Part shown: in pieces, positions 30,856 to 59,380 of the stretch
How the letters are laid out: every line of letters starts with the position of its first letter
Numbering within the stretch: position 1 is the first letter of the stretch
Notes under the pieces: generated by a model
Told to the model about the DNA's origin: nothing
Seen by the model: only the letters and a program-made list of their open reading frames with translations
Database searches by the model: none
From: Amoebidium appalachense
Taxonomy: Eukaryota; Protista; Ichthyosporea
Assembly: GCA_963693365.1 (NCBI GenBank)
Contig: CAVNZM010000009.1
Span: forward strand, 9,696,081 to 9,760,080
Length of the DNA stretch: 64,000 bases
Direction: 5' to 3'
Made by a program: the position numbers and the translations under genes

Positions 30856-31835
30856 AACCTTTGGAGCAAGCATACTGCTCTCGTGCCGTGGTTTACAACC
30901 ATTGCAGGTTCACTTTCGTCCAAGGGGATGTCCCCCTAGAGGCAACACACGTCCCGGAGTAGTTTTCATAGAGGTTTTATTTGTGGAAATTATTGACATA
31001 AATATTTTTCTGGGTAAACACGTAGGATGGGTGTCCGATATCAACATAACCATGTAGGCTTCGTTTCATGTTTTAGCAGTTCGCGTTCGGCTGCCCGCAT
31101 ACGGGCACCTATTAGCCGATCAAAACATCAGATTCCACAGATCACTAGACCGAGTTTGATTGGCTCAGGATCAGATTTCACATAACACTAGATCGGTTTT
31201 GATTGGCTCAGTTCGGTAGCCTTAGGTATATAAGCACGACAGTTTTTAGCAGATCAGCAAGCAACAAACACATCTTCTGTGTTTAGCACCTACAGCTTTA
31301 CAGCTATATTTTCTTTTTCACCCACCCACCTACACCCTACACTCAACCCCCATTGATCCCCACATACGTGCTGTTTTTTCACGGGGCGAAGACTTCCCCC
31401 GTTTTTTGGGCACAAGGACCTCACGGATCAATAAATTGATGACTGGGGGCCTGCCGTGGTTTACAACCATTGCAGGTTCACTTTCGTCCAAGGGGATGTC
31501 CCCCTAGAGGCAACACACGTCCCGGAGTAGTTTTCATAGATTATTATTATTATTATTCCTTATTTGCGTGGACGACGTCTATGGAAAAGAGGAAGTGCAT
31601 ACCCACCCACCAAAAAAGAACAAAAGAAAATCCACCAACCACAGATATGAAATATGGAATATGAATTGATTTCAGAAGACTTTCTCCCGAAACGGCGACA
31701 CCGCATGCACAGCAATCATCGGTTACGACCCATGTGCACGTACTTGTTCACAAGGAACTCCTCCTTTCCTCCTGCGGGTACTGGAAGGGGATGCGTGGAA
31801 AATTCCCAATATCGTTTCAACGTCCACAACGTTGT

Positions 31836-34800
31836 TGTTAAATTGTATAAGTATTTGGGATGTAAGCAGAGACACAGTGGTGCAGTGTGAAAACACCACA
31901 GACACACACAACAACAAAACACGGAACGATCGGAGCAGTGTACACAACAGACATCAATGTTTAGACACGACTGAACTCAATTTATTTTGATCTCGAATAA
32001 ATACCTGAAATTCCCTTAAGTTAAATCCATACATGATTTCCGACCAGTCGGAAATCAGATCTATGTCTAAAATAACCAATCACAATTAACTGATTATTTC
32101 CCGGATAGATCCGGAGACACAGGAACGCACACCATAGGTCACAGCTATAAGAAAGAAATGAGGTGAAGAGTAACGAGGAAAGAGGTGATGTTTCTAACCT
32201 ATCATCGGCTACAAAGACTCAGACATTTTCTGACTAAGTCCACTGATTGGATATAGTACGGCAACACACAAAACAAAAGTGGTTGACTAAGCTATGAATC
32301 ATACCTGACAAGCTAAAGTGTAACCTAAGTGTTTTTCTACCAATCAAAACATAACGAGTAATATAAATCTACTCAACGTATATTAGTGAGAGAGAAATAT
32401 AATTATGTGAAAGGAAACAAGAGAAGAAAGAAAGAGAAAAGAAAGAAGAAGAAAGAGGAAAAAGAAAAGAAAGCAGGACAGAAAACACGAACATGAAAAC
32501 ACAGTTATAACCGAAGATATTCATGTACACATAACATGTACACGTTTCTCCCTCACTGGGTAGACTCGTGTACCTATAATCAGTTGCTGTAATCGATATC
32601 TAAACACACGAATATAGCCGACACAACACGATTACAAGTACTCAAATACACTGGAGATCGATGTCATAATTTACGTACAAGGAGCACATCTCTTTCACTA
32701 AGTAAATGAATGAAAACATAACACGAACTGAGAAGATCTTACAATATGTAAATACTACGTATTACAACATCCCCACTCAAGACTTTGAAGTTTGTGTTAT
32801 CATATCCCCACTGAACTAGTGAAATCTCCCCACTTGAGAACAGAAACGGAAAAAAAAAAATTAAAGTGTGGACTTTTCCGGGGGGGGGGGGGGGGGGGAG
32901 AAGGGGGGGGGGGAGGGGGGGGGGGGGGGGAAGGGGGGGGGGAAGGGGGGGGGAAGGGGGGGGGGGAGGGGGGGGGAAGGAACCGGGGCAAAAACAACGA
33001 ATATATATAACGTGTATAGTCGGGGTTTGATTAACTGGGTGTTAAACCAGTGAAAGATAGAGTAGAGTCGCGGTACAGGTCAAACCTTATATATAAACCC
33101 TAAGTGGGCATACCCACAAAGGCAATACATATGAAATAATGATTATGATAAAGTAAGGAGTAAACATTAGAAAATCACTCTTGAAGTAGGTCGGGTCAAT
33201 CCACAATATCCGGTAAACAAAGTCGAGCACAATGGTGGACATGACTCGGGCCGGGGAGGGGTTTGGTGAGGATGTCAGCTAAGTTGTGGGCTGACTCAAC
33301 GTAGTGGACAACCACGTCCCCACTGGCAATGTAGTCCTTGGTGTTGTGATACCGGACGGCAATGTGTTTGGTACGGTGCTTGATGCCGGTGGAGTTGACG
33401 ATGGCAATGGTCGACTGGTTGTCACAGTACACCGGAGTCGGAGCAAGCATGGGACAGCCGAGTTCCTTGAAGAGGTCACGGACCCAAGCAACTTCTTGGG
33501 TGCCAGCATTGAGAGCAATCAGCTCAGCTTCAGTGGTGCTGGTGGCCGTGATGGGCTGGAGCTTGGAGTACCAGATGATAGGCATACCAGCAAACTCGAT
33601 AATGTAGCCGGTGGTAGACTTCTTGCTGTCGGCACAACCAGCAAAGTCAGCATCCGTGTAGCATTCGAGTATGGGGGACTGGGTGGCCGAGTACTTGTAG
33701 TCAATGCCAAGGTCAATGGTGCCGAGCAGGTACCGGGCCACACGACGGAGAAGGTCCCAGTGAGTCTTGCCGGGGTTGGTGCTGAACCGACCAAGGAAGC
33801 CGATGGCATAGGCAATGTCGGGACGTGTGCACCGTGCCACCCAGAGGAGACGGCCGAGTAACTCACGGTAGGGCACGGTGAACGGTTGGGGGGGGCAGTC
33901 AGCCAGGGAGACGGTGGTGCCTGCAGGGATGGGGGTAGACTTGGACTTGGCATCGGTGAGGTTGAAGTCGTGGATGATATCCATGATGTAAGACCTCTGG
34001 TGCATGTGGAGGTGATGGGGATCAGAGTGATTAAAGTCAACACCGAGCATACGGTCAAATGGACTCATACGACAGCTGGCCATCTTGCTGATGTGGGCAG
34101 CCAGGTCACTGGCAGCAGTAGAACCCCGGGTGTTGGTGATGGTGGAGTCGTCGACGTAGTTACCAGCCCGAACCACATCGTTGTTGGGGAAGAACCGGAG
34201 GTAGATGCACGGGTCGGTCTTAGTACGGGTCAGGCCATGGGCAAGAAGAATGCCGTCGAGGAAGTCGTACCAAGCCTTGGAGGCTTGCTTGAGGCCGTAC
34301 AGGGCTTTCTTGAGTCTCCAGACCTTGCCAAGTGTGGCCATGGTGATGAATCCCGGGGGTTGTTTCATGTAGATGGTCTCGGTGAGTAGGCTGTTGAGAA
34401 AGGCCGTAGACACGTCGAGTTGATGGATGTCATGACCTTCAACAACGGCCAGAGCTAGGATGGCACGGAGAGCAGCCGGACGGATGACAGGGCTCTCAAT
34501 CAACTCATAGTCAACACCGTATTGCTGACTGAAGCCTTGAGCAACACCACGTGCCTTGATCTTGGTGTCACCAGCCGAGTTGAGAGTTTTCTCGGAGACA
34601 ATCCACTTGAAGCCGACGATGTTAGCACCAGGGGGAGGGTCAACAAGTTCAAAGATGTCTTTGTCGACGAAGGCTTGATACTCAGCAGTCAGGGCTGACT
34701 TGACCTGGTCACCATTGGGTCCGGAACACAGTTGACGGACAAGTTTGGGTAGTTGGTCGATGTTGATGGGGGGACCGGGGGGGACTGGGAGGGTGGTGGT

Positions 34801-57860: not shown

Positions 57861-58479
57861 AACCCTCTCTTCTCTTATGTAGTATCGTAGGAACGCTGGA
57901 CAAAGGTACTACACGGGTGTTGGTTGGATGATGACAGTACATGTACCAGTGGGATAGATGCTGTTTACTCCAGGCAATGTACCAGTGTGTCGATTGATTT
58001 AGCTAATATTAGATCTATGTTTAGCTGTGTGTTGTTTTTTCTCCTTTTTGTATTTAAGGCCTGGCCGGCCTCATAAAATGCTATCTAATCTTACTCGAGA
58101 TCGAGCTTTTTTGGCCTTGAAGGCCGATCTTAATAAAGTACTGTGAATGTGTCCCCTGATGAGGGACTCTAGTCGATATATCTGCAAAACGACCCCCCCC
58201 CCCCCCCCTAAACACACACACACACACACACACACACACACACACAAACACAAAAACAAACAAAAAAGAAAGAAAAAAAGAGCGAGAGAATCCTTGTTTC
58301 TCGTATGTTACCAGCACGTAAGCAAGTATTTTATTCATTCACAATACATTGTTAGGTATGTGTAGTATATTATGGTGTTATTATTTTTTGGTTTACAATA
58401 TGGTGTCCACATTCCCAATATATCGTTATTGTCGACCAACTACTATGGTAGTGTAATGCTATGATGACAATTTGTGCAT

Positions 58480-59380
58480 GCGTTACTTATAAGCATCGGG
58501 TTTTTTCACTAACTACCCACAGAGTAGCTTCTAGCACGATAAATTCACCACAAATTATAAGGGGAGATGGTGAATGTGCCCTTGGAGTACGAGGGCCACA
58601 CGAAAAAAACACAACGTTGTAGCTCGAATAGAACCCCCCTTGTAGCATAGTATATGTACATGTGTTACTTACACATTATTGGTTTTTTCAATAACTACCC
58701 ACAGAACAGCTTCTAGCACGAGACATTTACCACACAGTTTATGGGGGGGATGGTGAATGTGCCCCTGGAGTACGAGGGTCACACGAAAAAAACACAACGT
58801 TGTAGCTCGAATAGAACCCCCCTTGTGGCATAATATATGTACATGTGTTACTTACACATTATTGGTTATTTCAATAACTACCCACAGAACAGCCTCTCGC
58901 ACGAGATATTTACCACAAAGTTTATGGGGGGGATAGTGAATGTGCCCCTGGAGTACGAGAGTCACACGAAAAAAACACAACGTTGTAGCTCGAATAGAAC
59001 CCCCCTTGTAGCATAATATATGTATATGTGTTACCTAGACATTATTGGTTTTTTCAATAACTACCCACAGAACAGCTTCTAGCACGAGACATTTACCACA
59101 CAGTTTATGGGGGGGATGTTGAATGTGCCCCTGGAGTACGAGGGTCACACAAAAAAAACACAACGTTGTAGCTCGAATAGAACCCCCCTTGTAGCTGATA
59201 ATATATGTACATGTGTTACTTACACATTATTGGTTTTTTCGATAACTACCCACAGAACAGCTTCTAGCACGAGACATTTACCACACAGTTTATGGGGGGG
59301 ATGGTGAATGTGCCCTTGGAGTACGAGGGTCACACGAAAAAAACACAACGTTGTAGCTCGTATAGAACCCCCCTTGTAGC
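58480..59380. repeat. Second array of the ~183-bp unit (~5 copies), truncated by Ngaro Z insertion
   Basis: Same unit and orientation as 42370-43375. Ends at ccccttgtagc|ggtttt. Confidence 0.95.

Follow-up and report, generated by a model that had tools for sequence, protein, structure and literature searches.

Organization of the locus

The window, a 64,000-nucleotide stretch of the Amoebidium appalachense genome, holds a transposase gene on the minus strand and a partner gene on the plus strand, whose start codons at 44390 and 45356 stand head-to-head with 965 bases between them, as the earlier note had described. A frame resembling the JmjC domain of KDM4 histone demethylases follows the first partner exon (Table 1). 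The window is also dense in nested retroelements. Its long ORFs were retroelement, transposase or low-complexity sequence, and among them no intron-poor viral gene setting with NCLDV markers was found.

Table 1. Features of the locus, in window coordinates
Feature	Positions	Strand	Remarks
Second 183-base tandem array, 4.8 copies	58470..59380	+	Same orientation as first array; cut by DIRS element; candidate element part only
13 near-palindromic TATTGSCAAT-type sites	53766..54715	.	Directly downstream of partner gene
Partner last three exons, inferred	52036-52278, 52809-52982, 53319-53630 (52036..53630)	+	In-frame splice signals, GC3 0.73-0.90
DIRS (tyrosine-recombinase) retrotransposon, internally deleted	48841..52011	+	In partner-gene intron
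Partner exon	48124..48453	+	GC3 0.85, no known family
Partner exon	47418..47635	+	11 bases shorter than in 4/4 runs compared
Partner acidic exon	46540..46753	+	Joints 45623-46540 and 46753-47418
KDM4-like JmjC, C-terminal half	45721..46245	+	Open to stop 46243-46245; within intron 1 of spliced partner transcript
Junction holding 566 more bases in other copies	45720..45721	+	Bridged by contigs of X14 and X8; in X1, loose ends at either side
Partner exon 1, K/S/G-rich	45356..45623	+	Spliced to 46540 in X12 and X14
Divergent spacer	44391..45355	.	Second variant in DNA runs X1 and X8: 40-43 substitutions, 34-35 gap letters
Transposase exon 1	43863..44390	-	Open frame, GT donor, N-terminal CxxC, acidic stretch; boundaries inferred from splice signals
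183-base tandem array, 5.5 copies	42368..43375	+	In transposase intron 1
Transposase exon 2, inferred	41440..41595	-	Splice signals and open frame
Transposase exon 3	40674..40895	-	Pfam Plavaka profile 42-102
Expected site of Plavaka profile 103 onward, not found	38960..40673	-	Contains ~250-base duplication and solo LTR
Duplication, ~250 bases	40057-40305 / 40423-40671		Inside 38960..40673
Solo LTR	39127..40063	.	Perfect 5-base target duplication
Transposase exon	38452..38959	-	C(2)C motif at 38934, ERMH at 38700
Two further transposase exons	37979-38136; ~37460-37700 (region 37460..38136)	-	Open frames
Last large transposase exon	35963..36750	-	Interrupted by copia element
copia LTR element in last transposase exon	31836..35962	-	Two ~925-base LTRs, RVT_2 E 1.6e-55
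Transposase C-terminus remainder past copia, inferred	31716..31835	-	Sequence

The span 31716-59380 had been proposed as a single large transposon, but it is not established as an element because searches for terminal repeats and a target duplication found none. Between candidate ends, only 8-10-base inverted matches at chance level were obtained, and the left side is filled by DIRS insertions; the ends described for Plavaka and other CMCT elements are TGT..ACA or CATCA..TGATG, with a target duplication of 2-3 bases (Kojima 2025, PMC12730594). Position 59380 was ruled out as an element end, since it is the point at which the 183-base array is interrupted by a DIRS element. One further partial 183-base unit was observed at 41718-41841. 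The TATTGSCAAT-type motif had 24 of its 32 window matches between 53766 and 54715, with 7.9 expected window-wide, a post hoc count given that the motif was chosen there; the cluster resembles a subterminal repeat array.

The Plavaka-type transposase

The transposase identified in the earlier note was real. The exon with the C(2)C motif scored 0.95 to Plavaka clusters in the Atlas and 0.92-0.93 to RAG1/Transposase_21 clusters, a comparison of low recognition value, and the match to Pfam PF18759 was weak, covering profile positions 42-102 of 325 at 22.6 bits (E 7e-5) and not reaching the cutoff of 26.3. Beyond position 102 there was no match among 44 stop-free frame pieces (38300-39135, 40055-43900), of which the exon-3 piece alone matched the profile. 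Transposases of Plavaka and the CMCT clade are described as having a C(2)C and an H(3-4)H motif in the interval from the second D to the final E (Kojima 2025, PMC12730594); here the C(2)C is present and the ERMH site has a single His only. Near 39000, an Asp lies in frame 18 residues ahead of the C(2)C; it may represent either intron sequence or the second catalytic Asp, and a Glu at 37540 is a candidate for the last catalytic E. The complete DDE core is absent from the window copy, with the profile missing past position 102 and the last exon split by the copia element, which has a 5-base target duplication with one mismatch.

The partner gene and its splicing

The partner gene had been modelled as nine exons with the JmjC stretch as exon 2. 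An open 736-aa model can be built, but GT..AG joints in runs X12 and X14 lead from exon 1 to exon 3 and pass over the JmjC stretch. These two runs represent a single RNA-like sample, tentatively taken to be RNA. The stretch is a phase 1-1 cassette, so skipping it keeps the frame; no JmjC-to-exon-3 joint was present among the joints listed and no spliced JmjC mRNA among the contigs listed, the X14 contig over JmjC being unspliced. Since the spliced contigs skip the JmjC stretch and the window copy is without a whole KDM4 core, neither a fused partner protein nor the earlier proposal that an unrelated protein harbours the demethylase domain is supported. Contigs of both RNA-like runs cover the JmjC DNA itself but, among the contigs listed, not the multi-copy spacer, which disfavours plain DNA carry-over.

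A 35-base micro-exon in the model is likely an artefact, as an 11-base loss in the window copy accounts for it: all four runs compared have 11 more bases after 47602 and run in phase 0 straight into the exon at 48124. X12 and X14 gave no cover of the intron after 46230, of the exons from position 47990 onward or of the greater part of transposase exon 1, which was not taken as evidence of silence. The exon-4 contigs of these runs depart from the window sequence at 47621 and may derive from shorter copies, since their tails beyond that point are absent from the window. The partner exons scanned gave no match to a Pfam family. For exon 48124-48453, a word-index protein search returned none of 53 candidates, the Atlas gave no usable match and the single-sequence model was poor (pLDDT 48).

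The KDM4-like JmjC stretch

All of the motifs on which the KDM4 assignment had been based (HVED at 45748, YKVW at 45796, CENPLQH at 45877, ALHYG at 46000 and CSC at 46096) are present in a single open frame. The Fe ligands H-x-E...H (45748 and 46006), the 2-oxoglutarate Lys and the Cys-His-Cys-Cys Zn site (C51, H57, C124 and C126) were invariant in a 13-sequence alignment. The frame matched Pfam JmjC PF02373 over profile positions 9-113 of 114 (E 1.3e-10, 42.1 bits, cutoff 24). The best match in a PDB search was human KDM4D (E 2e-13), with KDM5A/C at E 4e-5, and in a Foldseek search of the JmjC model the top rows were exclusively KDM4 (KDM4A/D, E 2e-9).

The alignment to KDM4D covers only residues 177-304 of the 327-residue construct, so a whole KDM4 core is beyond the coding power of the window copy, which is without JmjN, reported as needed for KDM4 activity, and without the N-terminal half of the core. 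The 2-oxoglutarate Asn position is Ser here, as in 15 of 142 homologues. We take this position to be N198 in KDM4A numbering, and the 2-oxoglutarate residue set to be Lys206, Asn198 and Tyr132; the Tyr132 region falls in the missing part. The S288/T289 position holds an Ala/Val pair (Ala/Ile in KDM4D).

The nearest relative, P0002, is 48% identical and sister to the stretch in the tree (support 0.94), on a long branch for the JmjC stretch of 0.84 compared to a median tip of 0.32. The spacing from N-x4-Y to the first His is 14 residues here and 15 in P0002, whereas 11 is usual. The top-scoring row, P0001, was set aside because its score stems from 15 tandem copies. Word-index protein searches with the JmjC stretch gave 0/483 and 0/25 candidates, two IMG/VR scans found no relative, and metagenome scans returned no loci.

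The absence of an N-terminal half holds for the window copy but not as a general property, as other copies carry 566 extra bases upstream. Translated by us in the JmjC frame, the 30 letters immediately preceding the junction give ten codons without a stop, N-x4-Y included, and an [NT]-x4-[YF] match occurs at that position in 109 of the 133 collected homologues that extend far enough upstream. Because the 566 bases end in this continued KDM4 motif, the window copy appears to have lost the front half by deletion rather than to have captured a half-domain, and the 566 bases would encode the front half of a KDM4-like enzyme. A foreign insertion was ruled out, there being no flanking duplication and the end continuing the KDM4 motif. 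A start codon after 30 letters on the far side would give exactly 179 codons, so that the first His would fall at residue 189, which is also its median position in the 142 homologues having that motif. With the 566 bases present, both nearby acceptors are out of frame relative to exon 1; the JmjC frame thus probably has its own start and is not fused to exon 1, and an intact front-half ORF is predicted in other copies.

Variants of the unit in public contigs

In public DNA contigs, the JmjC DNA behaves together with the transposase and the partner gene like a single repeated unit, as had been anticipated. The spacer variants are ~85% alike and both keep the head-to-head arrangement; in X8, both continue into a single contig that covers transposase exon 1. 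A deleted derivative in X1 joins 43899 to 45548 and 45581 to 45747 (34-letter sides). Both the partner gene and JmjC have a second variant in run X12; that of JmjC shows 26 differences in 388 and has a one-base gap in its contig, a possible frameshift. In a third JmjC variant, from X8, 5 of 10 residues in the loose end are kept, 4 of them via a synonymous change by our own reading. The genome has at least three JmjC variants. The two diverged spacer variants and the deleted transposase-JmjC derivative point to a multi-copy unit, which presumably moves as a transposon, although contig depth is not a copy number, and alleles, a mixture of strains or a segmental duplication could also account for the variants.

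Comparison with known systems

The earlier note had mentioned reports of Plavaka giant repeats and viral KDM4-like genes in Amoebidium, and both were found in Sarre et al. 2024 (PMC11244446). There, KDM4-like JmjC-only, multi-exon genes are described in giant endogenous viral elements. Like the present stretch, they are divergent KDM4 paralogs that lie in parasitic DNA and have no reader domains, and the same role against H3K9me3 silencing is suggested for them. The carrier differs, being a giant virus there and a spliced transposase with one partner gene here, where an intron houses the JmjC frame. The Plavaka giant repeats of that study are separate, intron-poor clusters rich in tyrosine recombinases, and no JmjC link to them was found in the parts of the paper covered (PMC11244446).

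Giant Plavaka elements of red algae with PAG1-3 are described as 17-19 kb long (bioRxiv 10.1101/2025.02.11.637652). They have accessory chromatin-enzyme genes and adjacent tandem repeats in common with the present unit, but their cargo is an N6-methylase/SET protein and ParB plus a 2OG oxygenase, unlike the KDM4-like frame here, and the terms 'JmjC' and 'demethylase' are absent from the main text. Fungal DNA transposons including PlavakaB bear TET/JBP (Kojima 2025, PMC12730594), likewise an Fe/2OG dioxygenase cargo proposed to counter silencing, on a transposase of the same clade with the C(2)C motif. The TET/JBP target is DNA methylcytosine and not histones, and 'JmjC' is absent from the main text of that paper. 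Arabidopsis VANDAL elements with VANC, as reported, have in common the idea of element-encoded anti-silencing and short repeats within the element, but are of MuDR type, whereas the partner exons scanned here are without a Pfam family. With the human KDM4A/KDM4D core, the stretch shares the HxE...H triad, the Lys206/Lys241 equivalents, the Cys-His-Cys-Cys Zn site and the fold; the window copy differs in having only the C-terminal ~40%, a Ser at the Asn198 equivalent, no PHD/Tudor and no JmjN. The published accounts cited thus already include virus-borne KDM4-like genes as well as Plavaka elements whose cargo is a chromatin enzyme (TET/JBP, SET, 2OG oxygenase), while KDM4-type cargo or a direct H3K9me3 eraser in a DNA transposon was not found in our literature search.

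Interpretation

The window element is likely a damaged copy of a multi-copy DNA transposon, disrupted by retroelement insertions, with the transposase core absent and the enzyme reduced to half. The best explanation, to which we assign a probability of about 0.5, is a copy of a Plavaka (CMCT-clade) transposon whose partner gene holds, in its intron 1, a KDM4-like JmjC frame predicted to act as an anti-silencing demethylase in intact copies. Other copies of the element likely have the entire KDM4-like gene, which would erase histone marks against the element's own silencing. In intact copies, the product would be a stand-alone demethylase core of ~350 residues that would relieve the element's silencing by stripping methyl marks from H3K9/H3K36, with putative targeting to the element, for example via the partner protein and the repeat arrays. 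That this is an active transposon family keeping its own H3K9me3/H3K36me3 eraser in the intron of a targeting partner, with KDM4-like cargo traded with giant viruses in one protist lineage, is put forward tentatively.

It is somewhat unlikely that an intron of a real transposon took up a KDM4-like gene, either from a host paralog or from an endogenized giant virus, and that the JmjC stretch is now a decaying passenger transcribed only as retained intron. The skipping of the stretch in spliced contigs would suit such a passenger, as would its GC3 of 0.51 (the seven long partner exons range from 0.67 to 0.90), the deletion in the window copy, the one-base gap in the second variant and a 5' side spanned by an unspliced contig only (among the contigs listed); the KDM4-like genes in which the viral insertions of Amoebidium are described as rich (PMC11244446) would be a ready donor. 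Decay is harder to reconcile with the retention of all catalytic and Zn ligands despite a best relative at 48% identity, with the number of variants in the genome and with the synonymous changes in the sole, short comparison.

A protein that is made and selected but has another role, acting on a different substrate or as a non-catalytic methyl-lysine binder or decoy, is improbable. The Asn-to-Ser change at the co-substrate site, the loop insertion before the first His and the long branch favour it, and non-enzymatic anti-silencing has been reported for fission-yeast Epe1. JmjC could then be an alternative first coding exon spliced to the acidic and C-terminal partner exons through the in-frame phase-1 donors at 46142, 46184 and 46187, but the corresponding joint to exon 3 was absent as noted above, and the Fe ligands, the Lys206/Lys241 equivalents and the Ala/Val pair suit a working trimethyl-lysine pocket. 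The least probable reading involves no mobile unit at all: in a repeat-dense region, a gene of host or viral origin, bearing a KDM4-like paralog in an intron, would lie by chance beside a dead transposase, and the two would have been multiplied together by segmental duplication. The nested retroelements filling the window, the missing element ends and a partner gene without a known family fit this reading, whereas the head-to-head arrangement kept in both diverged spacer variants, the internally deleted derivative and the subterminal-repeat-like motif array after the partner gene argue against it.

If the anti-silencing reading is true, the element would be a histone-level counterpart of the TET-bearing transposons. 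Provided that intact copies are active, a single small enzyme would make it possible to test the idea of selfish DNA lifting its own histone silencing, and the virus-borne KDM4-like genes reported in Amoebidium would have a candidate shuttle to account for their origin.

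Identity and extent of the JmjC stretch

Both start codons and the five JmjC motifs lay at the positions reported in the earlier note, and the JmjC stretch, a KDM4-like frame, scored above the Pfam cutoff (E 1.3e-10). Its top solved relatives were KDM4D and KDM4A, with KDM5 far behind, and KDM4 structures matched its predicted model (pLDDT 77). At the S288/T289 site it carries Ala/Val, resembling the Ala/Ile of KDM4D. Only residues 177–304 of the 327-residue KDM4D core are covered in the window.

A HMMER search of 1.84 billion representatives returned 863 matches. The best single-domain match was a 520-residue ORF (P0002, 48 % identical), placed as sister to the JmjC stretch on a long branch in a FastTree phylogeny of 153 domains (support 0.94). 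No loci were found in the viral or metagenome contigs scanned. The divergent KDM4-like matches P0062, P0039, P0008 and P0010, two of them from thrips, combine JmjC with C2H2-like zinc fingers and may be mobile-element cargo elsewhere.

Contigs of four public runs of 24 listed were compared with window positions 43700–48640: two DNA runs (X1, X8) and two RNA-like runs from one sample (X12, X14), whose RNA status is the guess of a tool. The N-terminal half is missing from the window copy but is probably present in other copies: X14 and X8 contigs carry 566 extra bases bridging 45720/45721, and contigs in X1 end loosely to the left and right of this point. The final 30 letters of the 566, as translated by us, give ten open codons with an N-x4-Y motif in the JmjC frame. 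Among the 133 homologues with enough upstream sequence, 109 have a motif of this type ahead of the first His; the spacing is 14 residues here, 15 in P0002 and usually 11. In KDM4A the Tyr of this motif lines the methyl-lysine pocket. By arithmetic, not from observed sequence, a start codon directly behind the 30 letters known at the 5' side would give exactly 179 codons and place the first His at 189, which equals the median among 142 homologues. With the 566 bases restored, neither of the two acceptors close by is in frame with exon 1. We infer that intact copies hold a nested ORF of its own, about 350 residues long, and that the window copy lost the 566 bases by deletion or assembly loss.

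Structure and splicing of the partner gene

An open 736-residue model of the proposed nine-exon gene exists, but X12 and X14 contigs splice exon 1 to exon 3; this joint bypasses the JmjC stretch, and its embedding in an unrelated protein was not borne out. The GT..AG joints are absent from both DNA runs, and a second sequence variant in the RNA-like contigs likewise skips the stretch. As a cassette of phase 1-1, the JmjC segment can be skipped with the frame kept, and its GC3 is 0.51 versus 0.67–0.90 in the seven long partner exons.

JmjC DNA was covered in both RNA-like runs: the X12 contigs represent two variants, and X14 has a single contig, which is unspliced. The spacer, compared in the same analysis, had no cover in either run, a control that speaks against carry-over of DNA. 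Depths of the JmjC contigs were 83 and 41 versus 1939 and 1702 in X12, and 8 versus 93 in X14, contig depth being no guide to ranking gene parts.

Exon 4 is 11 bases longer in all four runs than in the window, which makes the 35-base micro-exon of the nine-exon model needless. Many variant contigs in all four runs match part of the partner-gene intron that follows exon 3; this part is either a repeat in its own right or the 3' end of a transcript from a shorter variant. The exon-4 contig of X12 and X14 diverges at 47621: its tail has no counterpart in the window and soon meets a stop codon. There may be expressed copies of shorter length that encode a low-complexity protein. Searches of Pfam, Atlas (a protein-cluster resource) and proteins found no relative of the C-terminal exon.

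Transposase and possible multi-copy unit

A Pfam match below the cutoff, Atlas matches and a C(2)C motif mark the minus-strand gene as a transposase of the Plavaka/CMCT type of DNA transposon. Among 44 stop-free frame pieces from the front of the gene, one matched Plavaka (exon 3, profile positions 41–101 of 325); a large part of the catalytic core has thus apparently gone from this copy. A copia element interrupts the last exon, a solo LTR lies within a transposase intron, and a DIRS element lies within a partner-gene intron. A tandem duplication covers an intron and exon start of the transposase gene. No element ends were found in the window searches. Thirteen near-palindromic TATTGSCAAT-type sites, a motif chosen post hoc, form a cluster resembling a subterminal array and suggest that the right end may lie near 55 kb and not at 59380.

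Two variants of the spacer occur in X8, one of them differing by 43 substitutions and 35 gap letters over 508 letters, and the same contig across transposase exon 1 continues both; X1 has a similar variant. One X1 contig links transposase exon 1, partner exon 1 and the region of the JmjC His codon while skipping the DNA between them, with 34-letter sides that are weak alone. X8 also holds a further, more distant JmjC variant. Most records were at least 99 % alike (40 of 71 in X1 and 38 of 68 in X8). Such a pattern is compatible with a multi-copy family that is young and comprises two or more subfamilies; the variants may instead be alleles or reflect a segmental duplication.

Sequence context

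Coordinates of features in the window, with CGC/GCG counts for retroelement ORFs
Feature	Position	Strand	CGC/GCG observed/expected	Remark
Exon with SANT/Myb-like domain	367–620	+		By eye; probably host gene
Open frame, 223 residues	4638–5309	−		Resembles AP2-type DNA-binding repeats by eye
Second copia	8950–10480		1/35.4	
Gypsy-type fragment	19015–19731	−	2/13.5	Tf2-like SH3 and chromodomain, each below Pfam cutoff
Two DIRS retrotransposons	20651–31541	Opposite		Back to back; 97.8 % over 5.3 kb
DIRS recombinase	29800–30850		5/28.2	
Copia	33200–35030		0/40.5	
Tandem duplication	36667–37329			328 bases
Transposase start codon	44390	−		
Spacer	44391–45355			
Partner exon 1	45356–45623	+		Start codon 45356
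JmjC stretch	45721–46245	+		
Partner exon 3	46540–46753	+		
Partner intron part	46754–47140			
Partner exon 4	47418–47635	+		
DIRS copy	48841–52011			
TATTGSCAAT-type cluster	53766–54715			
DIRS copy	From 59381			

CGC/GCG was strongly depleted in the retroelement ORFs and not in the transposase, JmjC and partner exons (ratios 0.65–1.21). As a hint only, this agrees with published work on Amoebidium, in which methylation of CGC/GCG is widespread; avoidance of such methylation or erosion by it is a possible cause. The 223-residue frame had no Pfam match at E 0.1 and was absent from the protein collection.

Interpretation

The most likely reading, at a probability of roughly one half, is that the transposase and partner gene have a divergent promoter in common and that a second transcript encodes a nested KDM4-like enzyme, which would remove H3K9me3 (or H3K36me3) and help the element stay or become active. 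Three points count against this reading: none of the contigs listed shows a spliced JmjC transcript, the second JmjC variant has a one-base gap, and there is an Asn-to-Ser change. That the JmjC is a decaying passenger is a less likely second choice. A non-canonical JmjC role is improbable, and about as improbable is chance adjacency of transposase and JmjC, to be set beside the spacer variants and the X1 contig that links transposase to JmjC DNA.

The Plavaka giant repeats and viral KDM4-like genes that the earlier note mentions for Amoebidium are both described in PMC11244446. There, KDM4-like JmjC-only genes occur in 39 % of giant-virus insertions, with a proposed anti-silencing role, and a couple lie outside viral regions; Plavaka giant repeats are treated apart. 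Its figures and supplementary tables may bear on whether the window family is already listed. PMC12730594 and bioRxiv 2025.02.11.637652 describe TET/JBP, SET/methylase and 2OG-oxygenase genes carried by Plavaka elements. KDM4-type cargo in a DNA transposon was found in no paper of the literature searched, which covered few subscription papers. The finding is real but amounts to less than was first claimed for the window copy, and intact copies merit follow-up.
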